64,000 nt of DNA from Escherichia coli (GCA_902500205.1 GCA_902500205.1_4868.1); one strand, 5' to 3'. Counted from the first letter of the stretch, positions 47,625 through 63,762 are shown. Numbers and translations: made by a program. Notes: generated by a model from the sequence alone, not told the origin.

Positions 47625-47645
47625 TCCTGAGTAAAGGAAGTAAGA

Positions 47646-48557
47646 ATGAAACCTTTAAACAAAACGTCCGATAAGCTGGTTCTGGATTTTATTAATGAGA
47701 AAAACCCAGACGCAGAACTGGAACTTTCTAAAATAACGCTCGGCACACCGACCCCTATTAGCGATGAAGGTGCTGATCGCAATACCAGCATGACCCTGAC
47801 TGCGAAAAAGAACTCCGGGTACATCGGTACTCAGGACGTGACTTATAATCGCCTGGAAGGCGGTGCGCTGTTCCGTAATGTAACAGCATACCTCGACGTT
47901 AAACTGCCGAAAACCACCACAGACCTGCTGACGACCCTGAACACCCAATACGGATTGAAGCTGACCGAAGACGATATCGTTCCGGCGGCTATTCCGGAAA
48001 ATACCAACCCGCCGCTGACTAACCCGAACGATCCGGACCCAGCACCGGTTGACCATGTCATTACCTTCAAAGAAGACTGCTACGCTTATCTGGGCAGCAT
48101 CCCGGTTAAAATCGGTGCTAAGCCTCAGGTTGGTGAACGTCTGAGTCTGGTGGTAACACAAACCAAGCTCGACGGCCTGGTTTACCCAGATGGTCCAAGC
48201 GAAGCGAAGGGTCAGGGCTACATCTACTCTTACGGTGTAGACTGCACAGCAATCGCAGCATTCCTGAAAGTACAGGCGAAAGGTGTTATCGCTGGCGACT
48301 CTGCATTCCCGGTTGAGCTGAATAAAGTTGTGCCGGAACTGTGGGTTGCATCTGATGAGCCTGCGGATTATAACCTGAAAGGCGCTAACGTGTTGTATGT
48401 TGGTTCTACTGCTGACGATGGCACTGCTTCAGGCGACGAACCTAAGAAACCGGTTGAAGGTGCAAACACTGCTTACAACCAGGTTCTGCTGCTGCAGCTG
48501 GATGACACTCTGTGCACCAACTTCCAGGGCATCATGTACCTGCACTTTAATGCCTAA
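47646..48557 (+). CDS. Fibre-like paralog 4 (codon-optimised, probably the most abundant member)
   Basis: Family motifs plus host-optimised codons (runs of CTG, CCG, GGT). Confidence 0.85.
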   Translation: MKPLNKTSDKLVLDFINEKNPDAELELSKITLGTPTPISDEGADRNTSMTLTAKKNSGYIGTQDVTYNRLEGGALFRNVTAYLDVKLPKTTTDLLTTLNTQYGLKLTEDDIVPAAIPENTNPPLTNPNDPDPAPVDHVITFKEDCYAYLGSIPVKIGAKPQVGERLSLVVTQTKLDGLVYPDGPSEAKGQGYIYSYGVDCTAIAAFLKVQAKGVIAGDSAFPVELNKVVPELWVASDEPADYNLKGANVLYVGSTADDGTASGDEPKKPVEGANTAYNQVLLLQLDDTLCTNFQGIMYLHFNA

Positions 48558-48570
48558 TTAGGCCTCGCTG

Positions 48571-48610
48571 GGAGGAGGAAATCCTCCTCCTGGCTACTCC
48601 TTTCTTTTTT
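48571..48610 (+). terminator. Hairpin with distal T-tract (weak internal terminator)
   Basis: 'ggaggagg-aaat-cctcctcc' then 'tggctactcctttcttttttgg'. Confidence 0.45.
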
Positions 48611-48626
48611 GGCCGAGGAGGCTATT

Positions 48627-49466
48627 ATGGCTTTATATAGTCTGTCTCAGCGACAATATCTGTACGATGCGATTAATGCCGAAAACCCGGATGCTGTTCT
48701 ACCGATGGGTTTAGACAATGCTATCATCGGTACGCCGAAAGCAATCACACCGACAGCAAGCGGTGCCAACACCGAGATTATCATTCGTGGTCGTCAAGGT
48801 CGTGGCTATATCGGTCCTCAGACGTTCCGTTATAAGCGCTTGTCGCTGAACGACTTATTTAAGAACATGACACCTCAGGTAACTGCACCGAATGCCTACG
48901 GTTGGTTGAACGTGGAGTCGAAACGTACTGCGTTTGCGCAGAACCTGAACGGTCGTTATGGATTAAACCTGGTTGCAGACGATATCCCAGAACAATACGT
49001 TTATCTGAACGTAAACAACACGATGCGTATTAACGCTAGCTGTATCCAATACACTGGCAGCATCACCTTTATGTCTATCCGGGGTAAGAATAGCCTCGAA
49101 GACCTCGTGGTAAACGACATCTTGTTGGCTTTGAACCACCCTGCAGCAGCAAGCACTGGTAAGAAATACATGGGCTTCTTGACGTACGGGGAAGACTTTA
49201 CCGATGAAGTGCAGGTTATGGCCTCGTTTAAGAACGGGCGAATGGATGTAGGAAGTAACTTTGATTTGGGTTACACGTCCAATCTGATGGCCACATTGGT
49301 CGCACGTGGGGTACCGTCGTTTGATCCGACGAACTGCACAATTACCCGCTACAAAACGAGTGAGTTGGCGACCGCCAATAAAGCGTACGATAACGTATTG
49401 CTGATTACCGGCATTCAGAACGACCCGAAAGTAATCGGCGAGTGTATGTTGCACTACAACAACTAG
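48627..49466 (+). CDS. Fibre-like paralog 5
   Basis: 'gaggagg' SD before ATG 48627; C-terminal 'CMLHYNN'. Confidence 0.8.
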   Translation: MALYSLSQRQYLYDAINAENPDAVLPMGLDNAIIGTPKAITPTASGANTEIIIRGRQGRGYIGPQTFRYKRLSLNDLFKNMTPQVTAPNAYGWLNVESKRTAFAQNLNGRYGLNLVADDIPEQYVYLNVNNTMRINASCIQYTGSITFMSIRGKNSLEDLVVNDILLALNHPAAASTGKKYMGFLTYGEDFTDEVQVMASFKNGRMDVGSNFDLGYTSNLMATLVARGVPSFDPTNCTITRYKTSELATANKAYDNVLLITGIQNDPKVIGECMLHYNN

Positions 49467-49476
49467 GAATTAGCGA

Positions 49477-50364
49477 ATGGCTATTTATCAACCTTCTAAA
49501 GACGTCCTGTTGGCAGCAGTGAACGCACAGAACTCGCTTGCTGTTAAGATGACTGACATCATCTGGTCCACGCCAAAGGACATCCGTGGTACGGAGAAGG
49601 AAACGCTGACTAACCGTAACACGCAAATTAAAATTACGGCAGATGGGGTAACGGGCTCTACCTGGTCGGGTAAGAAAAATGTCTTCTACAACCGCATGAA
49701 AGTCGAAGACTTGTTAGTGCTGATCGGTGACACGTTGGCGATCGGCCCATCCAACGAAACCTTGTATGCGGCCATTCCTGGACTGAACCAACGTTACGGT
49801 TTTGTTCTGGAAGAAGCTGACCTGCAGGACGCAGATATCGAGTGGAACGGTGATAAGACCGAAGGAACTGTGCGCGTTGTTGCACATCCAGAGTCTATCG
49901 GTTGGGTTGGACAGGCGACATTTAAAGTCGTGAAAGGTGATGAGTCGTTAGTCTCTGCAGTCACCACTAACGTCCTGACCGGTCTGAAATACCCGAACGG
50001 TCAGATGGGTTCCGAAACCGTTACTGCGGTCATTGCAGAGGTTTATTCCTACCCGTACAACTTCACTAAGTACCGAGATGCTCTGCTGGCATACAAGCCG
50101 GGTATTCTGTCTGGACAGCCGTTAACGGATATGGTTAACCTGCTGAAAGATATTACGGGTACTGCATGGGTAGCGACCACTTCCGCTTCCTACGGTTTGG
50201 CGGGCGCGGAGGTTATCAGCGTTGGTCTGAATGACCCTGTTGCAATGCCGACAAACGCGAAGTACAAGTATGCGCTGGTGTTGAAACTGCCTGTTACCTG
50301 TACCACCATCGTCGGAACGTTGTATCTCCAGTTCAACGATCTGGACGATCCAAGCGAGGTATAA
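49477..50364 (+). CDS. Fibre-like paralog 6
   Basis: Family N-terminal motif; C-terminal 'LYLQFNDLDDPSEV'. Confidence 0.8.
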   Translation: MAIYQPSKDVLLAAVNAQNSLAVKMTDIIWSTPKDIRGTEKETLTNRNTQIKITADGVTGSTWSGKKNVFYNRMKVEDLLVLIGDTLAIGPSNETLYAAIPGLNQRYGFVLEEADLQDADIEWNGDKTEGTVRVVAHPESIGWVGQATFKVVKGDESLVSAVTTNVLTGLKYPNGQMGSETVTAVIAEVYSYPYNFTKYRDALLAYKPGILSGQPLTDMVNLLKDITGTAWVATTSASYGLAGAEVISVGLNDPVAMPTNAKYKYALVLKLPVTCTTIVGTLYLQFNDLDDPSEV

Positions 50365-50367
50365 TTG

Positions 50368-51195
50368 ATGATCAACTATGCTAAGCCGTCAAACGAGTTG
50401 GTCTTTGACCTCATTAACCGGGATAACCCAAACCTACCTATTAAAGCGTCGCCGGCAAACTGCTACGTGGAGAAAGTGACACAGGTTCCCGTTAATGCAG
50501 CTTCCAACAACCGCAATACGTCGGCACGCTTGCGCGGTATTCAGGGTTCCGGATTTCGAGACGCAATCACCGTTTATTACGACCGTGTGAACTTAGCGCG
50601 GTTATTGCCGTGGGGTCCTTCTGTCCAGGCGCAGTTCGTCACGTTTGACGCTCCCAACCTCCACTCAGCCTTTTCGGTGCTCTTGGATACTTACGGAGTA
50701 AACTTCTCTGCAATCGATATCTATAACCTCCCACTGGCGGGCCCCAATACCCCAAATTACACCAATACACAGAACATCGTAGCGCTATCGACATCTCCGG
50801 CTTATATCGGTTCTGCGACGTTGCGTTATAACCGTGGTTTACCGGTACTAGACACTTCGGTGAAATCGGATGTCTTGAATGCGATTCAAGAGCCTATCTC
50901 GCCGTCTCTCGGTAAGAAGTGTATTGATTTGTTGACGTACGGTATTGACTTTACCGCGTATAAAAACCTACTGACAGTAGATGCTTCTGGCCTACCGCAG
51001 TGGGCTGGTTTGCGTAAGGTGTTGGATGACCTGGGTATTCCGAACTACGCGGGGCCACTGAACAGTAACACCGTTCAGGATGTGCCGACTTCCACCGCTC
51101 AGTTCGCTAACAAATCGTACGACCGCGTGGTTATCCAAACGGGCATCGATGAGGAAGGCGTGAAAGGCGTGGCGTACTACCACTATAACAGCTAA
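50368..51195 (+). CDS. Fibre-like paralog 7
   Basis: 'NRNTSARLRGIQGSGFRDAITVYYDRVNLARLL'; C-terminal 'AYYHYNS'. Confidence 0.8.
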   Translation: MINYAKPSNELVFDLINRDNPNLPIKASPANCYVEKVTQVPVNAASNNRNTSARLRGIQGSGFRDAITVYYDRVNLARLLPWGPSVQAQFVTFDAPNLHSAFSVLLDTYGVNFSAIDIYNLPLAGPNTPNYTNTQNIVALSTSPAYIGSATLRYNRGLPVLDTSVKSDVLNAIQEPISPSLGKKCIDLLTYGIDFTAYKNLLTVDASGLPQWAGLRKVLDDLGIPNYAGPLNSNTVQDVPTSTAQFANKSYDRVVIQTGIDEEGVKGVAYYHYNS

Positions 51196-51200
51196 GTGTA

Positions 51201-51227
51201 GGGGCTCTTCGGAGCCCCCTCTTTTGG
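51201..51227 (+). terminator. Hairpin with short T-tract (weak internal terminator)
   Basis: 'ggggctc-ttcg-gagcccc' followed by 'ctcttttgg'. Confidence 0.5.
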
Positions 51228-51242
51228 CGATGCGGAGTCCCT

Positions 51243-52655
51243 ATGCTATTTTACTCGAAGGAGTCGGCACTGCTTGTATACGACCAAGTCAATCGGGATA
51301 ACCCTGATTTAGTTGTTAAGCTGACGCCGGCTATCGCTGCTTTAACCGGCGGCCCAACTTCAGTTACGTTAAACCAACGTAACACCAAAGCTGTTTTCAC
51401 CGGGTATCCAGGGACAGGTGTACAAGGTAATGTTACCGTGTACTACGACCGGATTAACCTGGCCACTTTATTTAATTTTGTGCCGACTGTGGCTATCAAA
51501 GATACAGTCTTAACGGTACGAGACGCGCTACCTGCAATAAACGACGCATTGGGGCTTACATTAGTTGCTTCTGATTTGCAGTCACCTGACGCAAGTTTAC
51601 CTAAACCGAGCGCTTCGCCGCAGACGTTGAAATTAAATATCTCAGGTAATTGCCCTGCGTTTACAGGCAGCTTAACGATACGTTATACCGTCCCGAGCGG
51701 TGCAATTTACCCCGATTCTGGACCTGGCCCTAAAACGTTGCTGCAAGGTAACACTATCGCGGGTTATTTCGGAACAACCACAATTGCAGAGTTGTTTACA
51801 CACTCTCAACTTCTTAATGCCACTATATCGGCCGGTGCGTTACCACCGGTACATTCTGGTGCCGAAGGTTGGTACAAGTTCTTTTACCAGGGTAGGGTTA
51901 TTTACCTCCCGATCAGTCCTGTCGCTAGCTCCATCTCCTGGAATACGTTATATACAAACGGACTCGTTTACGGAACAGATGATAATGGTAAATACCCTGC
52001 GGCGACGCCCGTTAACCAGGGACGCATCATTAGCTTTACAGGCGCAGACAACAAAAGGTTTTACTTCCGCGTTCGTCTACCTAGTGCTGGGAAGGACCCA
52101 TACGTCAGCGGCACCCCAACTGCCGCTGAGTTAGCAGGTAGTGAGTTTGAGATGTTCAACTTTCTGTATAATGGAACGTGGGACAAACCGATTAACAGTT
52201 ACTGGACGCTGTTCTGTTTATTGAAAGATACACTGAAGACCAACGTCGCCTATCATCGCATGGCGACGTTGTCTGGAGCCAGTTGGACAAACTTAGGAAA
52301 ATCATCGAGCGCAGGCAACTACTACTGGTTCCCGGTGCTGGAGTTGGTGGATAAATCCACAGTTACCTTGGGTTTAGAAGATATCCATGGTGCGGTAGAT
52401 TACAGTCTCCAACCGTGCAGCGTGTCCGCAGAAAACACGTTTAGTCTCAAGCCGTTGGTGCTCGGTAATCCAGATACTACCGATTTCGAACCGGTAGTTG
52501 TTACTTCAGAAAACAGTTTCGCACTGCATCCGCCTGCTTTAATGCTGCCGAAGACAGTCGATTTCCAACCTATTGCGGCTACCGCTGAAATGTATACGCC
52601 CCCTGACAAGACAACGTTAACGTCTCTTAACGGTGAACTGGACGGCTTTAAGTAG
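51243..52655 (+). CDS. Cassette gene A1: long fibre-like protein
   Basis: Family N-domain, 'YPDSGPGPKTLLQGNTIAGYFG', C-terminal repeats ending 'LNGELDGFK'. Confidence 0.85.
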   Translation: MLFYSKESALLVYDQVNRDNPDLVVKLTPAIAALTGGPTSVTLNQRNTKAVFTGYPGTGVQGNVTVYYDRINLATLFNFVPTVAIKDTVLTVRDALPAINDALGLTLVASDLQSPDASLPKPSASPQTLKLNISGNCPAFTGSLTIRYTVPSGAIYPDSGPGPKTLLQGNTIAGYFGTTTIAELFTHSQLLNATISAGALPPVHSGAEGWYKFFYQGRVIYLPISPVASSISWNTLYTNGLVYGTDDNGKYPAATPVNQGRIISFTGADNKRFYFRVRLPSAGKDPYVSGTPTAAELAGSEFEMFNFLYNGTWDKPINSYWTLFCLLKDTLKTNVAYHRMATLSGASWTNLGKSSSAGNYYWFPVLELVDKSTVTLGLEDIHGAVDYSLQPCSVSAENTFSLKPLVLGNPDTTDFEPVVVTSENSFALHPPALMLPKTVDFQPIAATAEMYTPPDKTTLTSLNGELDGFK

Positions 52656-52666
52656 AGGTATCATCT

Positions 52667-53665
52667 ATGTCTTTTACTTTGCGTTGGAAAAATCCAAACG
52701 TAATCCCTACGGTAGTAAAAATCTACCGTGACGTTAAAGATATCACACCAAGCGCTTTGCCTGAACCGATTGCAACGCTCTCAAATGGCGAGACAGAATG
52801 GCGTGATGCCACCGCCAAACCAGGCGCAATCTATTATTACCTTCTAACGGTAACCGCCAACGGTAAAACAGTGGCATCGTCTAGCCAGAAATACACCATT
52901 GAGATAAAGCGTGGGATTGGCCCAATGACTATTCTAAACGGTAACGACCGTTTAGGGTTTATGGGTGCGGTTCCTTACGACGAACAATGGCTTCCGTCGC
53001 AAATGCCACCTGCATTTTTGGCGATGTTCCCTAATCTATTAACCGATCGTGTGGCGTTGTATAAATTTACCCGAAACGGGAAAATCTATTACATGCTATC
53101 TAATACGTCGCAGTTCCCGAATACGCCTGTGGACTGGGCTTCCCTCTATCAAGCCGGTTTAGTCTATGGTACAGGCGATGCTGGCCCAGAGAACGGCCAT
53201 GGAACGCTACCAGACACTCCACAAGACGCTAAGATAGTCCACAAAGGGGATACGTACATTATGCGGCTTCCTCGCGGCCTGACGATGTCTAGCGAGCCTC
53301 CTGCGTATCCTTTCGTAGCTGACTATAATGGGAAAACCCATGATGAAATCGCTTCTCTAACCAACCCGTGTGAGTATAACGATTTACTTTACACGATGGT
53401 TAACGAGGTGCCGTGGAAACAGCGTTGGGCTAACTGGGCAACGAACAGTTATACTTTTCTGGGGCAGGGTACTTTGGGAACCTTGGCAGCGTATTTCGGC
53501 GGTGGTGTTCTCTGTATGGAACACGACACCGCGGAAGACCGTGTGCTCCATCGTGGTATCTTTAACAATGCCGGTGGAACACCCGTATCAGCGATTCAGC
53601 GTATAAACTATTTATCACCCACCACGAAAGGGCGTTACTACCCTATCTTTGAACTGGTCGAGTAA
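52667..53665 (+). CDS. Cassette gene B1: fibronectin-III-like N-terminus plus shared C-domain
   Basis: Paralog of 56121-57107 ('...FTLRWKNPN...IYRD...NGETEW...YYY...'). Confidence 0.85.
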   Translation: MSFTLRWKNPNVIPTVVKIYRDVKDITPSALPEPIATLSNGETEWRDATAKPGAIYYYLLTVTANGKTVASSSQKYTIEIKRGIGPMTILNGNDRLGFMGAVPYDEQWLPSQMPPAFLAMFPNLLTDRVALYKFTRNGKIYYMLSNTSQFPNTPVDWASLYQAGLVYGTGDAGPENGHGTLPDTPQDAKIVHKGDTYIMRLPRGLTMSSEPPAYPFVADYNGKTHDEIASLTNPCEYNDLLYTMVNEVPWKQRWANWATNSYTFLGQGTLGTLAAYFGGGVLCMEHDTAEDRVLHRGIFNNAGGTPVSAIQRINYLSPTTKGRYYPIFELVE

Positions 53666-53674
53666 GGGGCAGTC

Positions 53675-54598
53675 ATGACTATACGGTTAAGCTGGCCGTC
53701 CCAAGCCAGCAAAGGTCTTACCGCGATTGAAATCTACCGCAAGGAAGGTTGGAACGCAACAATCGACGTTTACAATCCAGGCACACCCCACGCAACTTTA
53801 TCAGGCAACGCGGTAGAGTTCGTAGATAATATCGATACCCTGACGAAGAATACAACCTATCGTTATTGGGTAGCTGCTGTGAAGGACAGTGAACGACTTA
53901 TCGGCAATCCGATTACGCAAGGATTCTATCCGGACACCGGGCCGGGTCCGCAAACAATCCTGCGCGGTGACTGGGCTTCAGGTTATTTCGGTACAGTACC
54001 GAATACAGAGTTCTTTAATACTGCCGAGTTAAAACTCATGTTAACTGCGCAGCAGGGAAACATGTTTGTCTACGACCCTCAGGAATGGCACAAGTTTATT
54101 TTCCGTGGGAGAATTGTCTTCTTCCCAGCGACGATGCATTCGAAAACCAACTCGGTACAAATGGCGTATCAGTACGGTATGATGTACGGGACCGATGATG
54201 TCGGAAGTATTGTTCCGCAGGGAGCCACGGCGACTAAACAAGATTGTAAGGTCACGAAGGATGGTCGTACGTACCGTATCCGATTACCTTACGCAGTCCC
54301 GTACGACGCTGTTCTCTCAGGACAGGATTACAACAACGGTGAATGGCGAAACACAATGGGCCGTTTGTATCCTGTCGGTGCAGAGTTCGCAGCCCTCGGT
54401 CTTGGTGCGATTGACTCACTTGCAAGACAAGGCGCGACTGCGCAGCCGAATGAGTCAGGTGCCGCTGTATTAGCTCCTTTGTGGAGCAACAACATATTCG
54501 CTTATGCGTATGGCACCGTGCCTATGGGGATTAGTAACACCGCAGGTGTCGGGAACTCGGCCACGATATTCTTTGCTTTCGAATTAGTCTTACCGTAA
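53675..54598 (+). CDS. Cassette gene C1: FN3-like N-terminus plus GPGP domain
   Basis: Paralog of 57110-58009 ('YPDTGPGPQTILRGDWASGYFGTV'). Confidence 0.85.
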   Translation: MTIRLSWPSQASKGLTAIEIYRKEGWNATIDVYNPGTPHATLSGNAVEFVDNIDTLTKNTTYRYWVAAVKDSERLIGNPITQGFYPDTGPGPQTILRGDWASGYFGTVPNTEFFNTAELKLMLTAQQGNMFVYDPQEWHKFIFRGRIVFFPATMHSKTNSVQMAYQYGMMYGTDDVGSIVPQGATATKQDCKVTKDGRTYRIRLPYAVPYDAVLSGQDYNNGEWRNTMGRLYPVGAEFAALGLGAIDSLARQGATAQPNESGAAVLAPLWSNNIFAYAYGTVPMGISNTAGVGNSATIFFAFELVLP

Positions 54599-54611
54599 CG
54601 GAGTAAAAGCC

Positions 54612-56108
54612 ATGGGGTTGTATACAGAACCTTCAATGGAACTGCTCTGCCAACAAATTGTGCGTGACAATCCCGGTTTAGCAGGAAAAATCACCGCTGA
54701 CTCCGTTGGGGTCAGGGGTGTTCCTGTTGCGAGAAACGTTAACGGACGAAACACACAGATTACGTTGGTAGGAAAACCTGGTAAAGGATTTGCTGGGGAA
54801 ATAACGGTATATTACGACCGGTTGAATCTGGCCAGTCTGTTCAAGTCTGGCCCGAATATGGTGAGTATTCCACGTAGCGCACAAACCCATGCGGAAGCGT
54901 TACCGGCGTTCAATGAATTGAACGGGTTGAACTTAACCGCGAGTGACATCACCAGTCCAAACGTTGCATTAATGAAATACGCTACGCCGGAAACTATAAC
55001 TCTGACGGCGCACGCTAACTCCTTGTGCTATACCGGGTCATGCAAGATGACCTATGTTTACGAACCGATTGCGATGTATCCGAAGTCGGGCCCTGGGCCA
55101 AAAGGATTAATGGCCGGTAATGAGTTATACGGATTCTTTGGGCTGGTAAGCGCGGAAGAGTTATTCACATCTGATGAAATGGTGTATGCCCTCTATAACG
55201 GCACCAACTGGCCTAACCGCTACGCTATCAAGTGGCTCAAATTCTTTCTGAATGGGGCGGTAGTGTTTGTTCCGACCCGTGCGATTTGCAACGTTACCTG
55301 GGCAGACCTGTACAACAAGGGTGCAATATTTGATTCCGGAGACGCAGGACCTCGCCCGAAGTCGACTTACACACCTGTCGATGTTGAACAGTTGAAATAC
55401 ATGGTAAAACGGGATGATGAAGGAACGCATTATTTCAGAATGTCTATCCCGTATTACACCGAGAACGCCGCCGCGCCTGATTGGAGTAAACCGCCGTCAA
55501 TCACCTCTATCCTGTCACTGACCAGCAAATTGGGGTCGGTGAACGTATATGGGGAATGGGGAACTCTTAGCACGACTGATGCTAACTTCCTGGATTCCGT
55601 GTGGTTACGACACCAGTTCGGTGCCGACCAAGCGTATTACCAGTCTATCAGTGGGAGCTATCGTTCATACACCTACATCTACACCTCTTCTGGCTTTTGG
55701 CCAATCCTGGAGATGTTTGATGTTGCCAATGAACCTGTGCCGTTGATTGACGAAGGTGCAGAACTAACATGGGCACCGTCCGTGGTTACTCTGACGGACA
55801 TCGACCAAAATGAATCGCTTCGTGTGGTGCCTATTACGGAAACCTCCGCTGCAGCGAATCCACGTCCGTTAGTTTTCAACACCGACAACACCGAAACTGC
55901 CACCCCTGCCTGGGTGCGGGAAGCGTCATCAGACTCACCACGTCCTCTGCTTGCCACGACGGACAATGATGAACGTGCATATTCCGTCGCGGTAACAGGC
56001 ATGGCTAGCGTTAAGATTAGACCGATTATTCTCACGACTGACCAAATCGCCCAACCTTCAAAAATTACTCTGGGCGATACTAACGGTGAGTTGGATGGAT
56101 TCCAATAA
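54612..56108 (+). CDS. Cassette gene A2: long fibre-like protein
   Basis: Paralog of A1; 'YPKSGPGPKGLMAGNELYGFFG'; ends 'TNGELDGFQ'. Confidence 0.85.
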   Translation: MGLYTEPSMELLCQQIVRDNPGLAGKITADSVGVRGVPVARNVNGRNTQITLVGKPGKGFAGEITVYYDRLNLASLFKSGPNMVSIPRSAQTHAEALPAFNELNGLNLTASDITSPNVALMKYATPETITLTAHANSLCYTGSCKMTYVYEPIAMYPKSGPGPKGLMAGNELYGFFGLVSAEELFTSDEMVYALYNGTNWPNRYAIKWLKFFLNGAVVFVPTRAICNVTWADLYNKGAIFDSGDAGPRPKSTYTPVDVEQLKYMVKRDDEGTHYFRMSIPYYTENAAAPDWSKPPSITSILSLTSKLGSVNVYGEWGTLSTTDANFLDSVWLRHQFGADQAYYQSISGSYRSYTYIYTSSGFWPILEMFDVANEPVPLIDEGAELTWAPSVVTLTDIDQNESLRVVPITETSAAANPRPLVFNTDNTETATPAWVREASSDSPRPLLATTDNDERAYSVAVTGMASVKIRPIILTTDQIAQPSKITLGDTNGELDGFQ

Positions 56109-56120
56109 GAGGTAACGACA

Positions 56121-57107
56121 ATGGCTTTTACAATTCGTTGGACGAACAATAACCCTGGGGCTTCGACCGTGAAGCTGTACCGCGACACCAAACCTCTGGT
56201 GCGTACGGCATTACCTGAACCTCTGGCAACGTTCACTAACGGGGAAACTGAGTATACTGACCGAACAGCGATACTGGGGACAACGTATTACTACATGACC
56301 ACTGTGACAGTGGGAAGCCGAACACTGTTCAGTCCGCAGAAATCAATTCTGATTCAGAACCGTCGCGGTATCGGCATCGTGACTCCACAGTACGGTGATG
56401 ACCGCTTTGCGTATTACGGGTATGTGGCGTACGGTGAATTGCCTAGCGCGGCTGATTATCCGCCAGGGTTTGTGGCCATTTCTGGATATGACCCAACTGT
56501 TAAGCCGGGCTTGATTAAGTTCCAGCTAGACGGTAAAATTCTGTATCTGTTTAGTGGTCTTCGTGTGAACGGCAACACGCTGTATAGCCGTGATGCGATT
56601 TATAACGCGGGTTTGCTGTACGGTGTGGAGGGACCTGGTCCGGAAGGCGGTCATGGTGATTTACCTGACGTTGACCAGGCTGGGGAGTTTACGTGGTTGG
56701 GTGACCGCTATCGGATGCGCCTGCTGCGCGGGTTAACGCTCGACAGTGAAAGCCCGGTCATGACACTCGACGCACAGTGGAACGGTAAACTCCATGACGC
56801 GTCACCGTATACTGCCGATAGCGAATACAACCGACTCATCTATGGGATAAGTAGCTGGTTCCCAGAAAAGAAAAAAGTGATGTCCCTGATAAAGTGGTCG
56901 AACACCAGCATATTCGGAAGTGGATCGCTGGTGGCAGGCCGTGGGGCGCATTGTCAGGAGTTTGACCCAGACAGTAAGTTGGGGCTGACGCGCGGATGGG
57001 CGGCGGCGGATTCCACTGATACCGTGGATAACCTCCAGCGTATACAACATGTCCCTGCGACCGTGGGCGGTATTTGGATTCCAGTAATCGAGCTTATCGA
57101 GGATTAA
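56121..57107 (+). CDS. Cassette gene B2
   Basis: Paralog of B1. Confidence 0.85.
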   Translation: MAFTIRWTNNNPGASTVKLYRDTKPLVRTALPEPLATFTNGETEYTDRTAILGTTYYYMTTVTVGSRTLFSPQKSILIQNRRGIGIVTPQYGDDRFAYYGYVAYGELPSAADYPPGFVAISGYDPTVKPGLIKFQLDGKILYLFSGLRVNGNTLYSRDAIYNAGLLYGVEGPGPEGGHGDLPDVDQAGEFTWLGDRYRMRLLRGLTLDSESPVMTLDAQWNGKLHDASPYTADSEYNRLIYGISSWFPEKKKVMSLIKWSNTSIFGSGSLVAGRGAHCQEFDPDSKLGLTRGWAAADSTDTVDNLQRIQHVPATVGGIWIPVIELIED

Positions 57108-57109
57108 TC

Positions 57110-58009
57110 ATGCCTATTACATTAAACTTTGCACAACGGAAGCCACAGGCGCTCGATAACATTGAAATCTATCGCAAGACGCCGGGCAACGCCACCATTG
57201 ATGTTAATGCACCGGGAACGCCTCTGGCAACCCTTCCGGGTGACGCTACATCGTACGAAGACAACGCTGTGGAAAACAACACCACTTACCGTTATTGGAT
57301 AGCTGCGGTTAAAGACGGTGAGCGTGTCTTCAACACCCCTACCGCCCAAGGGTTCTTTTTAGACACCGGGCCTGGCCCCCAGAAACTGTTATACGGCGAC
57401 TGGCACGCCGGATACTTTGGAACAGTAACGCCAGCAGAGTTATTCACTAACGCGGAACTGAACAGCCTCGTGGTGAATATGTTCAGTTCCGCCGTTGGTG
57501 CCTGGCATAAGTTCATTTACAAAAACCGTATTCTGTTTATGTCCGATAACTCGATAATATACGCTAGCCCGCAGTTCATTTATAACCAGGGGCTGATGTA
57601 CGGCCAGGATGGCAACGGATATGTGCCGAGCTGGGCTAGTGCACGTAACCAACGCCGCACGGTGACGAAAAACGGTTACGAATACGTGGTGCGCTTGCCG
57701 TATTTGTTCGACTACAAATACTGGACGTCTTTCGTTGGAAGCGGTAACACCGAGTTGTATCTCGACGGTGAGTGGTTTAACACCTTCGCGCGCCTGTACA
57801 ACTACAGTGGGCAGTTTCCGCGCTTTGACGACATTCCGGTCGGTCCAATCGATTCGGTTACTGCCCAACAATCTGCATTCTTTGCGGCTATGAATAACTT
57901 GTCCGCTCAGTGGTACAACCGTCCACCCTACCCAGAGTCGCCGTCATGGGGTAACTACGGTACCGATACAATACGCTCTATTGCGGTACTTGAACTCGTT
58001 CTGCCTTAA
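57110..58009 (+). CDS. Cassette gene C2
   Basis: Paralog of C1; ATG 57110 after 'gagga' (track start 57074). Confidence 0.8.
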   Translation: MPITLNFAQRKPQALDNIEIYRKTPGNATIDVNAPGTPLATLPGDATSYEDNAVENNTTYRYWIAAVKDGERVFNTPTAQGFFLDTGPGPQKLLYGDWHAGYFGTVTPAELFTNAELNSLVVNMFSSAVGAWHKFIYKNRILFMSDNSIIYASPQFIYNQGLMYGQDGNGYVPSWASARNQRRTVTKNGYEYVVRLPYLFDYKYWTSFVGSGNTELYLDGEWFNTFARLYNYSGQFPRFDDIPVGPIDSVTAQQSAFFAAMNNLSAQWYNRPPYPESPSWGNYGTDTIRSIAVLELVLP

Positions 58010-58020
58010 CAGGAGACTTC

Positions 58021-58056
58021 ATGGGATTGTATAGCGCACTTTACCATAACAGCTAA
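58021..58056 (+). pseudogene. Vestigial 5' stub of an A-type cassette gene (11 codons)
   Basis: 'aggagacttcATGGGATTGTATAGC...' mirrors the A2 start 'ATGGGGTTGTATAC...' (both MGLY...); runs into TAA after 11 codons, directly before a terminator. Confidence 0.5.
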
Positions 58057-58088
58057 AAATAGGCCCTTCGGGGCCTATTTTCTTTTTT
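58057..58088 (+). terminator. Intrinsic terminator (TTCG loop)
   Basis: 'aaataggccc-ttcg-gggcctattt' followed by 'tcttttttag'. Confidence 0.85.
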
Positions 58089-58099
58089 AGGACGTTGCA

Positions 58100-59419
58100 A
58101 TGATCAACTATAACAAACCTGTCATGCAACTGGTTTGGGATCAGATTAATCGTGATAACCCGCAGCTCAAGAAACCGCTCAACGCAACCAACGTGGCGTT
58201 ATTACAAGGTCCTTTAACCAATGCCTTGCGCGATGGTCGCAACAGCCGTATCGTGGTAAACGGATTACAGGGTGGTGGTTACAGCGGTAAGATGGACATC
58301 TACTACGACCGCTTAAACCTTTCGCAGTATTTTAAAGGCGTCAGCGTACCGGTTAAAGTACCTTATCGGGCGACGGTCTACCGCGACATCATCGATCGGA
58401 TTTCCGCAGCTTGTGGGTTGGTGCTTACTGCTGACGATTTAACGTATCCTGACAGCCAGTTTGCAATGATCACTGTGGCAACGGGCGATCGGACGGTGGC
58501 GATTAAATCGGATAACCCCGCATTCACGGGTTATATTCCTATTAGCTTTATTCGTGAAGAGCCCAGCTTTGCCGACTTGTACCACACCACCGAAACCGGA
58601 GCTTGGGAACCCATGGATGTTTACAGCACGGTCTATCGACTCGACTGGAGCATGTACACTCAACAGATAATCAATATCCCAATGGGTACCCCGCTGCGAC
58701 TAAACAGTAACTCGTACATGACCCAGTTCATCGCGGCGCTGTCGGCATGGTCGGGCATCCCGTTCACTATCGGTAATGCTGCTACTGATAACCCGTATGA
58801 CCTCTATGGGTATGTCGCTACACGCAATAACAACCCAGGCTTAGACCCTGATATGCGTGGGGAGTACAAATACTGCGTGAAGTTGACGCCACCTGAGGAT
58901 ATGGGTAATCTCCGCCGTCCGTTCTTCTTGCACTTTGGTCCGAAAAATAACGTGGCCTATTTGGCGCAGGAAGAGGACGTCGAGCGTTATGCGCGTTACA
59001 TGAGTTTCCGGGAAACCAGCCCAAATTCGATGAGCGTCACGTTGTATCAAAACGAGTACGTGTTGACTCGGGCAGAATCGCCTGAAACAGCGGATGATTT
59101 AACGGGTTCCCCGTATGGCACTCGATACTGTACCGGGAGTATTCGACGGCTGATGCAACACGCGTTTCCGACCGAAGAGATGTTCCAAGAAAGTATTGCT
59201 AACCGACGTCGGGTACTGTACCACACTGCTTACACCACCACGACATCAGCTATTACTTACCAGGGATTATACCGTAACGGATACCAATCCAAACAAATGA
59301 CGAGCCTCTACTCGAATTACTGTAACTATTTCATCTATTACGACCCAAGCAAAGGCGGCTATATGGTCTACAGTCCATATAGCAAAACCGCCCCGGTCCC
59401 TTGGTATCCACCGCTATAG
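58100..59419 (+). CDS. Fibre-like protein (439 aa) with family N-domain and distinct C-terminus
   Basis: 'GRNSRIVVNGLQGGGYSGKMDIYYDRLNLSQYF'; C-terminal 'YSPYSKTAPVPWYPPL'. Confidence 0.85.
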   Translation: MINYNKPVMQLVWDQINRDNPQLKKPLNATNVALLQGPLTNALRDGRNSRIVVNGLQGGGYSGKMDIYYDRLNLSQYFKGVSVPVKVPYRATVYRDIIDRISAACGLVLTADDLTYPDSQFAMITVATGDRTVAIKSDNPAFTGYIPISFIREEPSFADLYHTTETGAWEPMDVYSTVYRLDWSMYTQQIINIPMGTPLRLNSNSYMTQFIAALSAWSGIPFTIGNAATDNPYDLYGYVATRNNNPGLDPDMRGEYKYCVKLTPPEDMGNLRRPFFLHFGPKNNVAYLAQEEDVERYARYMSFRETSPNSMSVTLYQNEYVLTRAESPETADDLTGSPYGTRYCTGSIRRLMQHAFPTEEMFQESIANRRRVLYHTAYTTTTSAITYQGLYRNGYQSKQMTSLYSNYCNYFIYYDPSKGGYMVYSPYSKTAPVPWYPPL

Positions 59420-59433
59420 ACTAAGGTGCCACC

Positions 59434-61611
59434 ATGTCCTACACTCCTGATTTAGTGGCGACCGTGATTCGGTCGCTCAACCGTAAAAACGCGGTCGCCA
59501 GAGCAGTAGACCCCGCTAACGTACGCCTGGTGTCCGTGGCGCATCGTGACGAAAAAACCCTAGACGTCACACTGACAGGGGGTCCGGGGTATTCTAGTTA
59601 CGGTCAAATTACGGCCCAGGTCACGAAGCAAAATATTGCTGATTATTTCGCTAAGGTTAAGTTGGATGCCATTCCCACTTGTGCGTCCATCCACGAACTG
59701 TTGCCACATTTAGACACTCTACTAGGGATTACCTTTTTAACCGACGACTTTGAAGACCTGCCCATCACTTGGACAAACAATGCTGCGCGCATCACGTTCC
59801 AGGCGAAACAGACAAGTCTTATCTGGTACGGCAGCCAAACGCTAGATGTGATAAACGGTGACGTGGATATCAACACTGTCTACACTGTTACCAATATCAT
59901 TTTCACGCTAAAGGCTGCGAATAAACAGCAGTGGATTAACTTCTACTCTAATGCAGCCAAACGGATCGTGGATCTTGATAAAGTCGATGTCAGCGCCCCG
60001 ATGTCCCCGGAGGATATAGGCCAAACCTCTGCGTATAACAGCGTCGTAGCTTTGACCGCTAGACCGGGGAGCGGGATGTTTGGAACGAAGTATGTGTTCT
60101 TCTCACGTAACAAACTCGAGACATATGCAGGCAAAACCACATACGTCCCGGACGATTTCACCGGTAGCCTGCATGATGCTCTGGCCATCGAGACACTCGG
60201 CATTCGGAGTGTTTTTGATGTAAACGAAATTGCTCCTGTAGAGAACCTGACAGGCGAGTGGCCGAGACAAGTGCAATTGGCACCCGTAGAGGGTTCGTAC
60301 AAAGTCATGGGCAGCGCCACGTTGAATGTGGCACGCTATCAAGATAACGAGCAAACCCTTAACCTGAACTACACAACTACGTCGCAACTTTCGGACAGCT
60401 ACTGGGCCACAACGTTGATCAACCATGCGGCCTGCGGGCGTTTGTTTGTTAACGTGACCGTAGATGCGGGGGCTTTCGTTTATCGCGACAGCAACCTGAA
60501 ACCGACGTTCGTTATCGACGAATTGCCGCAAATTGGCGAGGTGGTTTGGAACTTCGTTAACCGGGGAACCATTCTTGGTCGTGGTGGTTCGGGTGTGGTC
60601 TACTCTATGCCTGCGAACACATCAGCGGACGGAGCTGACGCAATCCACATTAGCGATACCTTCCGTGGCAAAGTCACCATCGAAAACTACGGCACCATCG
60701 CCGGTGGTGGGGGTGGGGGCGACTACTATGCGTTTAGCACCACCAAGATCGGTGGAGCTGGTGGTGCGCCTCTCGGGCCAGGCGCGGCGGTGCCCAGCGA
60801 CACCAATAACCGTAACGGCTTAGCTGGGTCCCGTGACAAAGGCGGTGCTACCCAGTTAGTCGTCGCGCAATTTACCGGCTACCAGAGTCGCTACTATGGC
60901 GGTCCGGGTGGGGATTGGGGCCAGCCGGGACGTTATACAGCGTTCGAGCAATGGAACACCCCGGCTACCGGCTCGCCGGTCTATGTCTACGGTCGTGAAG
61001 ACGGGATGTCATGGACTCGCCCTGGGATGGCAGGCGAAGCCGTCGGTGGGAATAAAAGTATCGTCAACTGGGTATCCGTCGGAACGGTGAAACCGAATGT
61101 CACCGACGAGTACCAAGAGTTCCTCGACTACCTCGCAGATTTAGATGCCAACCGACTGGCTAGTGCGGATGGGATAGATAAAGTCACCGACCCAACCAAA
61201 CCTGTAGTTGTGGAGTTCTTAGGTACGATTATTTCAGGTACGCTGTTCAAAAAGCAAAACATACCCGGCGGTTTGGTGGGAACACCATACGGCGATGCTG
61301 TAGCCAACTTACCAGCCACCACATTGTTTGGTATCATGGCACACTGTGTATCGGAGTTTGATATTGTGCACGACACTTGGCGTTACAACCGCGCGGTAAT
61401 GTTCACGCTAAAACCCGCACCTACCGGGGCGATTAGCCTCGCTGTGGAACGCAACCGGGTGAAATCGGCTACCAGTAGTGCACCGGTGGAGAAGTTCTAC
61501 GTCGATCGCTTCGTGTATTACGATGCGTATCTCGGTAAAATGATGGAATGTAATCCGTATACCAAATCTGCCCCTAAACCGTGGGTGCGGCCAACGATAC
61601 CGTTATCGTAA
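59434..61611 (+). CDS. Large fibre-like protein (725 aa) with Gly-rich segment
   Basis: Family-like N-terminus; 'GGGGGGDYYAFSTTKIGGAGGAPLGPGAAVPS'; C-terminal 'NPYTKSAPKPWVRPTIPLS' echoes the previous gene. Confidence 0.85.
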   Translation: MSYTPDLVATVIRSLNRKNAVARAVDPANVRLVSVAHRDEKTLDVTLTGGPGYSSYGQITAQVTKQNIADYFAKVKLDAIPTCASIHELLPHLDTLLGITFLTDDFEDLPITWTNNAARITFQAKQTSLIWYGSQTLDVINGDVDINTVYTVTNIIFTLKAANKQQWINFYSNAAKRIVDLDKVDVSAPMSPEDIGQTSAYNSVVALTARPGSGMFGTKYVFFSRNKLETYAGKTTYVPDDFTGSLHDALAIETLGIRSVFDVNEIAPVENLTGEWPRQVQLAPVEGSYKVMGSATLNVARYQDNEQTLNLNYTTTSQLSDSYWATTLINHAACGRLFVNVTVDAGAFVYRDSNLKPTFVIDELPQIGEVVWNFVNRGTILGRGGSGVVYSMPANTSADGADAIHISDTFRGKVTIENYGTIAGGGGGGDYYAFSTTKIGGAGGAPLGPGAAVPSDTNNRNGLAGSRDKGGATQLVVAQFTGYQSRYYGGPGGDWGQPGRYTAFEQWNTPATGSPVYVYGREDGMSWTRPGMAGEAVGGNKSIVNWVSVGTVKPNVTDEYQEFLDYLADLDANRLASADGIDKVTDPTKPVVVEFLGTIISGTLFKKQNIPGGLVGTPYGDAVANLPATTLFGIMAHCVSEFDIVHDTWRYNRAVMFTLKPAPTGAISLAVERNRVKSATSSAPVEKFYVDRFVYYDAYLGKMMECNPYTKSAPKPWVRPTIPLS

Positions 61612-61614
61612 TTT

Positions 61615-61644
61615 AACGAGGAACTTGACGGGTTTAAAGCCTGA
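61615..61644 (+). pseudogene. Vestigial 3' stub of an A-type cassette gene
   Basis: 'aac gag gaa ctt gac ggg ttt aaa gcc tga' (NEELDGFKA*) mirrors the A1/A2 ends 'NGELDGFK*' / 'NGELDGFQ*'. Confidence 0.5.
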
Positions 61645-61657
61645 AGATAAACCATGC

Positions 61658-61689
61658 CCTCTTCCCCACGGGGAAGAGGCTTTCTTTTT
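61658..61689 (+). terminator. Intrinsic terminator
   Basis: 'cctcttccc-cacg-gggaagagg' followed by 'ctttcttttt'. Confidence 0.8.
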
Positions 61690-61716
61690 ATGACCCTATC
61701 AACTCAGGAGGTTATC

Positions 61717-62307
61717 GTGGTCGATCGTTGGAGTAAAGAGGGCATTATTCGTGCCAAAGTAAACATCGAAGCCGGTTACGTTAATAACCCGAAAGATTTG
61801 GGTAAAGCAACGAACCGTGGTGTCACCGAACTCACGGCGCGTGAATATGGCTATAAAGGGGATATGCGTGACCTGAGCTTAGAAATCGCGTTAGACATTT
61901 ACAACAAGCTCTGGTGGCAGCGAATGCGTTTAGACCAGATTATGAAAATGAATGTCCTGCTAGCTGACCGGATGTTTGACTTCGGCATTAACGCAGGACG
62001 CGGTAACTGTATCAAGTCCCTGCAACGTATTCTGAACGTATTAAACCGTCAGGGTAAACTATACGATGATATCGATGCCGATGGTGGTATCGGGCCACGT
62101 ACGTTAACAGCGTTAGAAGGCTTCATCAAAGCCCGTGGGGAAGAGGGCCTGAATCGACTGATGTTCGCTTTAACCTGTCATCAGGTTGCGTATTACACGG
62201 AAATCAGTGAAGGGCGTGAGGATAACGAAGAGTTTACTTACGGCTGGTATGGCCGCGTCTATCAGGAAATGCCAGACTACGTGGCTAAGTTGGGGATGTG
62301 CAAATGA
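61717..62307 (+). CDS. Endolysin candidate: GH108-type muramidase with peptidoglycan-binding-like C-terminal region
   Basis: 'GYVNNPKDLGKATNRGVT...IYNKLWWQ...FDFGINAG...DADGGIGPRTLTAL' fits the GH108/PG-binding arrangement; 'aggagg' SD before GTG 61717 (ATG 61690 alternative). Confidence 0.6.
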   Translation: MVDRWSKEGIIRAKVNIEAGYVNNPKDLGKATNRGVTELTAREYGYKGDMRDLSLEIALDIYNKLWWQRMRLDQIMKMNVLLADRMFDFGINAGRGNCIKSLQRILNVLNRQGKLYDDIDADGGIGPRTLTALEGFIKARGEEGLNRLMFALTCHQVAYYTEISEGREDNEEFTYGWYGRVYQEMPDYVAKLGMCK

Positions 62308-62405
62308 AACAGAATTGGTTTGCTGCCTTAATGAAAGCTATCTGGCGCGCCCTTGTTTTTGCCGCAAGGAGAAAACGTAATGACCCACCGTCCAACTCCG
62401 CCTAA
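62304..62405 (+). CDS. Micro-ORF (33 aa), amphipathic/basic; lysis-accessory candidate
   Basis: ATGA overlap with endolysin stop; MKQNWFAALMKAIWRALVFAARRKRNDPPSNSA. Confidence 0.25.
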   Translation: MKQNWFAALMKAIWRALVFAARRKRNDPPSNSA

Positions 62406-62532
62406 GTTCCCCGAAGTACAAACCGTTCCGGAAACGTATTACGATTCTGGGTTCTTCAAACTATTACGCGCGATCTTCTGTCGGAGGGTAAAACCATGCA
62501 ATACGACAACGACGACTGGCCGAAAGGCTTAA
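62380..62532 (+). CDS. Small ORF (50 aa) with strong SD
   Basis: 'caaggagaaaacgtaATG'; overlaps the next small ORF in another frame. Confidence 0.3.
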   Translation: MTHRPTPPKFPEVQTVPETYYDSGFFKLLRAIFCRRVKPCNTTTTTGRKA

Positions 62533-62588
62533 TGCCCATTTTACTGGGATTAATGGTCCTCACGATGCTCGTGCGTTATATGACGTGA
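62496..62588 (+). CDS. Micro-ORF (30 aa) with single TM helix; holin/spanin-like candidate
   Basis: 'ggagggtaaaaccATG'; 'GLMPILLGLMVLTMLV'. Confidence 0.3.
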   Translation: MQYDNDDWPKGLMPILLGLMVLTMLVRYMT

Positions 62589-62595
62589 GGTCAGT

Positions 62596-63237
62596 ATGGA
62601 AGCACTTAAGTATAAGTTGTTAGAGAAGCCGTGGTTTATCCTCACGGATGATTTCCATTTCGAGTTTACGTTGCGCAGCCTCTATCGTGAACAGACCGGA
62701 ATGGATGCGATGGTAGCATTAGCAGGTGTGCATCCGGATACCCCGTTATGGGTAACGGTACCGAGAGGATTTGTGACGGACCTGGCAAGCATTCCAGAAG
62801 CGTTACGTCCTATCCTGCATCCGGATGGGCCTTGGGCTGCTGCCGCTTGTGTGCATGATTTGTTTTACCAGAAACGTTCATCGGTAGGCTTTTACCCTGA
62901 CACCGTTGAAGGTAATCTATCTCGTGCTTGCGACAAAACATTCGCTGACCTGATGTTCTTACGCATCATGGAGGCATTAGGCGTTGACACCTTTATTCGT
63001 AAGTCCTTCTACCGTGCCGTTCACGAGTTTGGTTGGCCGTCCTATGTAGACGATAACTCTAAGGTGGTTTATAGCCGGCCGGTAGAAAAGACGTTGTCCT
63101 ATAATCGCAACTACCTGTTCTTTAGAACGTCGCGTACGTTAGCGATTCCTGAACACGAACGTGTTGACATTACTAATGGGCAACCGGTAAACGTGCAGTA
63201 TTTGAATATCAAACGTGCGTTCCTGACTACCCCTTAA
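62596..63237 (+). CDS. DUF1353-like protein
   Basis: 'GFVTDLASIP...AAACVHDLFY...ADLMFLRIMEALGV...YRAVHEFGW' matches the DUF1353 pattern. Confidence 0.6.
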   Translation: MEALKYKLLEKPWFILTDDFHFEFTLRSLYREQTGMDAMVALAGVHPDTPLWVTVPRGFVTDLASIPEALRPILHPDGPWAAAACVHDLFYQKRSSVGFYPDTVEGNLSRACDKTFADLMFLRIMEALGVDTFIRKSFYRAVHEFGWPSYVDDNSKVVYSRPVEKTLSYNRNYLFFRTSRTLAIPEHERVDITNGQPVNVQYLNIKRAFLTTP

Positions 63238-63246
63238 GGAGAGAAA

Positions 63247-63762
63247 ATGTTTCATCCGAATCCTGCCAACTTCGCGTTAAAAGAGTTGATGCCGCAGGAG
63301 TACATCGCGAAATACGGTGAAGGTGCTATTCGTTTCCTTAATCCGTTACTGTTAATCTCGCTCCAACAGATTCGTAATCGTTTTGGGCGGATGGTGATTT
63401 TAACCAGTTCCCAGCAACAGCGTAGTCTGCGTACCCTGCAGTTCTTTATTAATCAAGAGAAACCAAAGGGTGGAGATTGGCAAACTCGTGCAAACAAACT
63501 GTACGCCGAATCAGGCAGTATGCATAAATTCGGTAATGCGTTTGATGCAACAATGCTTGATACTCCGTTGCAGAAAGTACACGACTATATTGCCGCGAAC
63601 CCTAACGAGTTTCCGTTTATTCACTTTATCGAGTGCGATATTACCTGGCTACATGTTGACGTACGCAACCAGCCTGATATCACCTTCTGGTCACCGACAC
63701 GTGGTACCGTTAAAGTGGTTAAGCAACAACCCATCGATTGGAGCAAGCTAGTTAAAATCTAA
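63247..63762 (+). CDS. M15-family (YcbK/DUF882-like) zinc peptidase; possible peptidoglycan endopeptidase
   Basis: 'SMHKFGNAFDA' (H-x6-D) and 'FIHFIECDITWLHVDVR' resemble the LAS/M15 metal-binding signature; 'ttaaggagag' SD. Confidence 0.5.
   Translation: MFHPNPANFALKELMPQEYIAKYGEGAIRFLNPLLLISLQQIRNRFGRMVILTSSQQQRSLRTLQFFINQEKPKGGDWQTRANKLYAESGSMHKFGNAFDATMLDTPLQKVHDYIAANPNEFPFIHFIECDITWLHVDVRNQPDITFWSPTRGTVKVVKQQPIDWSKLVKI

Follow-up and report, generated by a model that had tools for sequence, protein, structure and literature searches.

Two gene-end stubs around gp154 and gp155 of a Seoulvirus-like sequence are probably independent relics of a deletion and of a nonsense mutation

A 64,000-nucleotide (nt) stretch of DNA from Escherichia coli (GCA_902500205.1; the whole stretch is called the window here) carries two very short coding remnants, or stubs, at 58021–58056 and 61615–61644, on either side of two long genes that correspond to gp154 and gp155 of Salmonella phage SPN3US. 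A preliminary description, made from the sequence alone, regarded the stubs as both ends of one lost gene, the third in a series of so-called A-type genes, whose interior would have been exchanged for the two long genes. Our analysis leads to another reading, to which we assign a probability of about 0.87: the stubs are independent, non-functional relics, the 5′ one being the seam of a 3,456-bp deletion and the 3′ one the tail of gp155, truncated by a nonsense mutation, and an older gp154–gp155 swap probably lies behind the seam. Neither stub is of a new kind: one is a junction left by a deletion at a microhomology, the other a C-terminus truncated by a nonsense mutation, and both represent ordinary genome decay.

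Results

The 5′ stub is a deletion seam

Over 51,000–62,400 the window is 98.1% identical to Escherichia phage vB_EcoM_EC001 (EC001), at full length and in one piece, and 98.1% identical to SPN3US in two pieces, with about 3.5 kb extra in SPN3US. Because of these identities we assign the window to an SPN3US-like jumbo phage of the genus Seoulvirus. SPN3US genes are numbered as in JN641803, the numbering used in the SPN3US literature, and L001 denotes SPN3US sequence coordinates. The locus consists of three-gene cassettes (A-B-C), and X, D and E stand for gp144, gp154 and gp155 and their homologues.

The 5′ stub is an 11-codon mini open reading frame (mini-ORF) on the + strand, ATG GGA TTG TAT AGC GCA CTT TAC CAT AAC AGC TAA (MGLYSALYHNS-stop). 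As had been described, it is preceded by a ribosome-binding site (AGGAG, 58011–58015), and 12 of its first 14 nt match the start of A2 at 54612. Alignment with both SPN3US flanks reveals it to be chimeric. By BLAST, 51000–58039 is collinear with L001 3001–10043 at 98.4%, and the collinearity reaches 19 nt into gp151, which is the third A-type gene (A3) of SPN3US; 57985–58039 differs from L001 9988–10043 at one position, and the A-type start comes immediately behind the stop codon of C2. Bases 1–19 of the mini-ORF (58021–58039) are thus the 5′ end of gp151, and the AGGAG is identical to the sequence upstream of that gene, so the stub is indeed the vestige of a third A-type gene. The remaining 17 nt (58040–58056) are the last bases of an older pseudogene relic of gp144 type (X′).

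The second alignment segment, 58031–62400, equals L001 13491–17861 and overlaps the first by 9 nt, exactly at 58031–58039 on the + strand. This sequence, ATAGCGCAC, is single-copy in the window. SPN3US has two copies, ATAGCGCAC at L001 10035–10043 and ATAGCGTAC at 13491–13499, 3,456 bp apart; the 9-bp repeat, ATAGCG(C/T)AC, is identical between them at 8/9 positions. The repeat therefore stands at both SPN3US breakpoints and once at the window junction, and what the window lacks, 3,456 bp in total, is one repeat copy plus the interval. A deletion at this microhomology would have fused codon 7 of gp151 to the relic, 17 nt short of its end, taking out gp151–gp153 together with most of the relic. 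The mini-ORF would then owe its ribosome-binding site and ATG to gp151, and its YHNS-stop, with the following terminator, to the relic.

A search of related genomes for an intact third cassette, proposed in the preliminary description, was successful: SPN3US and most relatives have the cassette together with both long genes. In SPN3US, intact gp151 (A3), gp152 (B3) and gp153 (C3) lie between C2 and D, with gp154 and gp155 downstream. Since SPN3US holds both, and the long genes stand downstream of the terminator in both genomes, these genes did not replace cassette 3; the window simply lost 3,456 bp.

Among 34 phage records matching the junction region, only EC001 and Lh1B contain the junction in one piece, and no copy of it was found in the complete E. 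coli genomes searched. EC001 and Lh1B were both isolated on E. coli; the deletion allele of cassette 3 is confined to the two E. coli-isolated Seoulviruses and the window. Lh1B, at 240,200 bp exactly as long as EC001, has N at variable sites, and its assembly was presumably guided by a reference. Several of the records SPFM5–SPFM15 align with the query in 40 short pieces only, which together make up about 22% of it; their sequence quality is presumably poor. The mini-ORF is probably translated into a functionless 11-residue peptide. A role as a functional leader peptide was considered and rejected: nothing speaks for it, and in the three genomes that have the mini-ORF it is no more than a product of the deletion.

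The 3′ half of the mini-ORF and its terminator

The preliminary description was correct in placing a terminator and two large genes between the stubs. The hairpin scan finds a terminator-like hairpin with a T-run at 58056–58091 (hairpin 58056–58081, + strand), part of the X′-terminator-gp154 junction, whether imported or ancestral, and followed by genes at 58100–59419 and 59434–61611. It had escaped that description that YHNS-stop plus terminator resembles the end of the 275-amino-acid (aa) gp144 homologue, which reads ...GVKGVAYYHYNS-stop and is likewise followed by a terminator (51150–51218, hairpin 51201–51218, + strand). The 58056–58091 terminator is near-identical to the one between the gp144-like and gp154-like genes of Phobos and of the relative L011, and relic, terminator and gp154 start together are 82% identical over 198 nt to the X-terminator-D junction of L011. 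The long version of the relic, found in SPLA5c, is 74% identical to the window's own gp144.

How the relic shrank can be followed in the spacer between the C stop and the D start. In the metagenome contig L015 it measures 405 nt and holds a 120-codon ORF, in which codons 1–71 of an A-type gene, ending at the conserved TVYY motif (VYY(D/N)), are joined to the last ~48 codons of a gp144-type gene. A shorter form of 91 codons occupies 318 nt in SPLA5c. The spacer is 178 nt in SPN3US, L014 and SPLA3, where a 30-codon ORF precedes the relic's last bases and the terminator; in SPN3US, behind cassette 3, the ORF reads MGFYSSTALELLCRLIQRDNPQHAGRISWS-stop and is followed by ...GGGATAGCGTACTTCACCATAACAGCTAA and the terminator, and the window alignment with SPN3US resumes 17 bases before the relic's TAA. 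In the window, EC001 and Lh1B only the 11-codon mini-ORF is left, in 90 nt. From this series it follows that the 3′ half of the mini-ORF is the last trace of an older hybrid pseudogene.

The cassette array is thus bracketed by direct repeats, two diverged copies of the gp144-type 3′ end plus terminator (51150–51218 and 58040–58091), whose coding part is ~74% identical in the longer relics; by recombining with each other they would remove the whole array.

The 3′ stub is the tail of gp155

The 3′ stub lies in frame and collinear with the 725-aa gp155 homologue, another point missed by the preliminary description: the first codon of the tail (61612) comes directly after that gene's TAA. On the + strand the window reads TAA TTT AAC GAG GAA CTT GAC GGG TTT AAA GCC TGA AGA TAA, where AAC GAG GAA CTT GAC GGG TTT AAA GCC TGA (61615–61644) is the stub, NEELDGFKA-stop; the relative L012 reads CAA TAT AAC GGG GAA CTT GAC GGG TTT AAA GCC CGA GGA TAA, coding for QYNGELDGFKARG-stop. 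The two agree at 37/42 nt (88%). Aligned codon by codon, the premature TAA (61609–61611) corresponds to CAA (Gln) in L012 and P0002 and the second nonsense codon, TGA (61642–61644), to CGA in L012, so that both window stops are C>T changes of sense codons; the ancestral stop is the TAA at 61648–61650. The dead tail as a whole (61612–61650) translates as FNEELDGFKA-stop-R-stop.

Homologues of gp155 (38–82% identity) read through the stub sequence without interruption, ending for example in ...PLSQYNGELDGFKARG-stop. It is translated as the C-terminus in P0002 (82% identical, 738 aa; ...KPWVRPKTPLSQYNGELDGFKARG), P0003 (79% identical; ...ISMLGGEPNGFV), P0005 (...LSTFNGELDGFDTR), Phobos gp145 (...NLSEANGELAGFKS-stop) and CR5_144 (...DLSKAQDTLDGFKK-stop), the tail-bearing homologues being 735–738 aa long. 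The window protein covers positions 1–714 only of the phrog_19313 profile (728 positions).

The first TAA is common to 8/8 SPN3US-type genomes examined, and behind it the tail shows signs of decay: Glu stands in place of the conserved Gly of NGELDGF, GFK is changed to GVK (F>V) in SPN3US and EC001, an 11-nt deletion inside the stub breaks the frame in L015, and three codons upstream there are further stops in EC001 and Lh1B. The tail was probably cut off by a CAA>TAA nonsense mutation in the ancestor common to the SPN3US-type phages and has been decaying since. The truncated gp155 was detected in SPN3US virions with 60% sequence coverage (Thomas et al. 2017, PMC5694885, Suppl. Table 1). Because the stub decays while truncated gp155 remains a virion protein of SPN3US, the tail is dispensable in the SPN3US-type clade and readthrough of the gp155 TAA is very unlikely.

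The stub was claimed to be the end of an A-type gene, and this part of the preliminary description does not survive. What lies upstream of the stub is the 3′ end of gp155, the similarity to A1 being limited to a motif of ~24–36 nt, and what follows is a terminator and the endolysin gene, where an A-type gene would have a B-type gene with its ribosome-binding site. In the 11 A-type tails examined the last residues are GF, GFK, GFQ, GFN, GFI or GFL (EFK in one), that is, 0–1 residue after GF; the stub's GFKA, ancestrally GFKARG, is more like the gp155-type endings GFKS, GFKK, GFKARG and GFDTR, which is a weak criterion since one gp155-type tail ends with GFV.

A second terminator-like hairpin with a T-run, found by the same scan (61658–61689, hairpin 61658–61679, + strand), closes the array upstream of the endolysin gene and has a homologue in the terminator that follows the final C gene of the Seoulvirus JN03. 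The mechanically predicted 217-aa ORF at 61654–62307 starts with an ATG (61654) inside the junction/terminator region; the annotated endolysin start in relatives is the ATG at 61690, and a GTG at 61717 with AGGAGG upstream is another candidate.

A C-terminal motif shared by several protein types

The similarity between the 3′ stub and the A-type ends had been noticed correctly for A1. Between the stub's 24-nt core and the A1 terminus (NGELDGFK-stop, 52629–52655, + strand) 19/24 positions agree, a score reached only by A1 itself and the stub among 128,000 positions on both strands of the 64-kb window. At the DNA level the claim fails for A2 (NGELDGFQ-stop, 56082–56108, + strand): the match is 15/24, which is not above chance, 19 positions scoring that high. 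As a peptide, the motif [GE]EL[DN]G[FV] occurs at only three sites in the six-frame translation of the window, namely A1, A2 and the stub.

In a broader comparison at least three protein types prove to terminate in a motif of the form (K)(T/I)(D/N)LSxxxGELDGF, with 0–4 further residues before the stop: the A-type proteins, those of gp155 type found outside Seoulvirus, and gp160, an abundant head protein of 175 aa (L001 20469–20492). The motif also ends the small neighbouring proteins CR5_148 and Phobos gp155 and gp157, and its range includes Seoulvirus, Machinavirus-related phages, Derbicusvirus and two metagenomic lineages. The stub resembles A1 and A2 because one tail motif ends several protein types in four genera. 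B and C proteins have conserved C-terminal motifs of their own, (F/I)EL(V/I)E(D) before the stop in B (window 53645–53665 and 57087–57107) and (F/L/I)ELVL(P/S) before the stop in C (54578–54598 and 57989–58009), which are also kept in CR5, Phobos and JN03.

A probable older exchange behind the seam

The order of genes differs between related phages in a way that points to an older event. CR5, Phobos, L011 and L012 have X-terminator-D-E-(A-B-C)n, with the tail on E; the Machinavirus phages Caitlin and pEa_SNUABM_4 have X-terminator-(A-B-C)n, without D or E; SPN3US-type phages have X-terminator-(A-B-C)3-relic-terminator-D-E. The number of cassettes ranges from one in CR5 to four in pEa_SNUABM_4. 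In JN03, D and E are missing, and an intact fourth cassette (A4, 504 aa, with B4 and C4; L009 7592–11508) stands directly before the endolysin gene. The start of its A4 is the start of the SPN3US relic, and the window and JN03 become homologous again (C4 stop, terminator, endolysin) from 61647, at the ancestral stop codon of E or C4.

Against Caitlin the seven short DUF7941 genes are 60–85% identical (gp144 homologue 81%) and A1 70%; Caitlin has no gp155 homologue, and its gp154 match is only partial, at 40%. The short DUF7941 genes and A1 of the window are closer to Caitlin (60–85%) than to L011 (45–72%). Against L012, D is 80% and E 82% identical, A only 27–29%.

The simplest reading, as we infer it from these gene orders and identities, is an import of gp154–gp155 into the fourth cassette. 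A block consisting of the 3′ part of a gp144-like X, the terminator, gp154 and gp155 with its tail would have come from an L012-like phage with the order X-terminator-D-E-A, and would have replaced most of the fourth cassette (A4-B4-C4) of a Machinavirus-like array in the SPN3US-type lineage. The left crossover may have fallen inside the shared N-terminal DUF7941 coding region and the right end at the stop codon. The swap would have left the hybrid A-type/gp144-type relic, which the window's deletion later almost erased. The idea of a module-replacement scar thus holds to the extent that an older swap did take place nearby, as the fourth cassette of JN03 indicates, but it concerned another cassette and left no A-type 3′ end.

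Further alleles exist at the locus. In SPLA3 cassette 3 was lost through homologous crossover of the gp151 start with the relic, SPLA5c has a hybrid 2/3 cassette, and JN03 retains of cassette 3 only a 500-nt gp151::gp153 remnant; in total, phages with more than 95% identity have five or more structural alleles here. Public Seoulvirus genomes are numerous, as a 345-member cluster (that of P0001) shows. A metagenome scan produced two more Seoulvirus contigs, L014 and L015, both distinct from the window; an IMG/VR scan with the C-terminal half of gp155 returned only SPN3US itself, and a GTDB genome scan gave no match.

The endolysin/DUF1353 ('tail assembly chaperone') block (61690–63762) lies on the + strand directly after the array in Seoulvirus. 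It is inverted, and situated beyond two or three small genes, in Caitlin (L005 16338–19574) and L011 (18320–20991); therefore a second rearrangement borders the array.

The gene array

Upstream of the cassettes the window has seven short genes at 45118–51195 (SPN3US gp138–144), the last of which is X, the gp144 homologue (50368–51195, 275 aa), ending with ...YHYNS-stop and a terminator. They are followed by A1 (51243–52655, gp145), B1 (52667–53665, gp146), C1 (53675–54598, gp147), A2 (54612–56108, gp148), B2 (56121–57107, gp149) and C2 (57110–58009, + strand, gp150), the last intact gene of cassette 2, collinear with L001 9114–10013 at 98.4%. Then come, all on the + strand, D (58100–59419, 439 aa, gp154), the C-terminally truncated E (59434–61611, 725 aa, gp155) and the endolysin gene (from 61690, gp156).

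The gp144, A1, A2, gp154 and gp155 homologues have DUF7941 at the N-terminus with 85–292 bits (Pfam gathering cut-off 27; PF25613, E = 1.6e-25 in D). B and C genes have no Pfam match and match phrog_1062. E has in addition a GP38 adhesin-like glycine-rich (polyglycine) domain (PF05268, 68 bits, residues 362–553). The array genes belong to the SPN3US 'paralog family B' of virion proteins, gp138–gp154 and others (Thomas et al. 2016, 2017; PMC5105663, PMC5694885). Proteomics of tailless particles found the whole family there, including gp154 and gp155, labelled 'Head' (Thomas et al., PMC5105663, PMC5694885), and because of this occurrence the family is placed in the head, not the tail. The preliminary description had not taken up this published assignment, and its 'fibre' label for the two long genes is unproven, the adhesin-like domain of gp155 notwithstanding. 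A capsid-borne adhesin-like protein, as the combination of this domain with the head fraction would imply, would be unusual.

Discussion

Other explanations of the stubs have been weighed. That they are the two ends of a single third A-type gene, its interior replaced by the terminator and the long genes, draws on the truly A-type start of the 5′ stub, on the motif that the 3′ stub has in common with A1 and A2, and on the module swap that did happen nearby in the lineage. We nevertheless hold it to be highly improbable: in SPN3US a complete third A-type gene stands beside the two long genes, the mini-ORF owes its 3′ half to a gp144-type relic and not to an A-type gene, and the 3′ stub continues gp155 collinearly and in frame, with 88% identity to the tail of a gp155 homologue and only a 24-nt core in common with A1. 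Hardly more credible is that two cassettes are the ancestral state and that SPN3US gained the third by insertion or duplication. Cassette number does vary widely, from one to four, but an insertion would need to recreate both a full gp151 and the relic, which is longer in SPN3US, SPLA5c and L015, and at the junction there is but one copy of a repeat that SPN3US has twice. An assembly artefact, in which paralogous cassettes were collapsed, might be suspected at so repetitive a locus, given the poor-quality public records in the clade (the Ns of Lh1B, the fragmentary SPFM matches). However, the breakpoint falls in a 9-bp microhomology between unrelated sequences rather than within long paralogous repeats, and EC001, separately sequenced and ~2% different, has the identical junction, so an artefact too seems most improbable.

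As to the 3′ stub, it could still be in use if low-level readthrough of the TAA produced a minor, tailed form of gp155, as with the A1 protein of phage Qbeta. The stub is in frame, and FNEELDGFKA is undamaged, with its ELDGF core kept, in the window, SPLA3, SPLA5c and L014. Purifying selection on the extension is nevertheless not what the clade displays: the conserved Gly is replaced by Glu, the second nonsense codon removes the ancestral last residues, the invariant Phe is Val in SPN3US and EC001, L015 has its 11-nt frame-breaking deletion, and in EC001 and Lh1B extra stops precede the stub by three codons. TAA followed by T, the context of the gp155 stop, is regarded as the strongest termination context in enterobacteria. 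For the older event only, gp154 and gp155 might instead have moved internally, by tandem duplication and deletions, from upstream of A1 to the end of the array. The ancestral order X-terminator-D-E-A in four related lineages would suit this, as would the two diverged copies of the X 3′ end plus terminator around the array. This course is less parsimonious than import, and we think it unlikely, since it needs at least three events, the relic is nearer to X of L011 (82%) than to the window's own X (74%), the X-terminator-A1 junction is collinear with Machinavirus, which is without D and E, and E is 78–82% identical to L011/L012, above the backbone genes against L011 (58–72%).

Some points count against our own reading of two independent relics. 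The codons between the stops are intact in the window, SPLA3, SPLA5c and L014, so decay of the tail is not universal. The lack of function of the mini-ORF and of the dead tail is deduced from sequence decay, and the direction and the horizontal origin of the older swap from how the genes are ordered and how similar they are in a few genomes, so both should be taken as probable only. Furthermore, since Lh1B looks reference-guided, independent support for the junction comes from EC001 and the window.

For annotation, the results mean that the mini-ORF should not be called a gene, that ATG 61654 should not be used as the endolysin start, and that gp155 of SPN3US-type phages is a C-terminally truncated allele. 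The stubs also help to date and order events: the gp154–gp155 import, the tail loss, the stepwise erosion of the relic and the loss of cassette 3. With its five or more alleles among nearly identical phages the locus is marked as a hot spot of recombination and deletion. We found no mention of the stubs, the cassette structure or the tail motif in the SPN3US, EC001, Lh1B, SPFM and SPLA literature searched. For work on SPN3US three leads emerge, the natural deletion of gp151–153 in E. coli-propagated relatives, the exchange of gp154/gp155 for a fourth cassette in JN03, and the C-terminal motif, each of them relevant to the function of the enigmatic 20-member 'paralog family B'. One may speculate, and we regard this as doubtful, that (D/N)LSxxxGELDGF is a modular attachment or assembly tag and the array a fast-turnover repertoire of capsid-borne adhesins that tunes host range, tag loss and cassette-3 loss being adaptive. 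If this were true, both losses would be functional adaptations and not neutral decay. The lasting interest of the locus is in the speed of structural turnover in a paralog array and in the conserved motif of the C-terminal tails.

Deletions between short direct repeats, arising by microhomology-mediated illegitimate recombination, are classic in the genomes of T4, T7 and lambda. The window junction is like them in that exactly one repeat and the interval were lost, and there is nothing unusual in it; in contrast, the sister phages SPLA3, SPLA5c and L015 lost the same cassette via homologous crossover between paralogues. Mosaic exchange of receptor-binding or fibre modules at conserved N-terminal anchors is likewise familiar, from gp37/gp38 of T-even phages and from the multi-tailspike phages CBA120 and G7C. 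The hybrid relic resembles such exchanges in joining A-type DUF7941 codons 1–71 to a gp144-type C-terminal part, as do the alternative modules found in the same slot, A4-B4-C4 in JN03 and gp154–gp155 in SPN3US; it differs in that the crossover product is a decaying pseudogene and not a working chimera, and in that published work assigns the proteins of the array to the head. With Qbeta A1 the gp155 stub has in common an in-frame, conserved-looking peptide directly behind the stop of a virion protein, but the gp155 extension carries a second stop and lineage-specific damage, with no sign of constraint. The closest known system is paralog family B of SPN3US itself: the genes are the same as in the window, with the N-terminal DUF7941 confirmed, the difference being that the window is without gp151–153.

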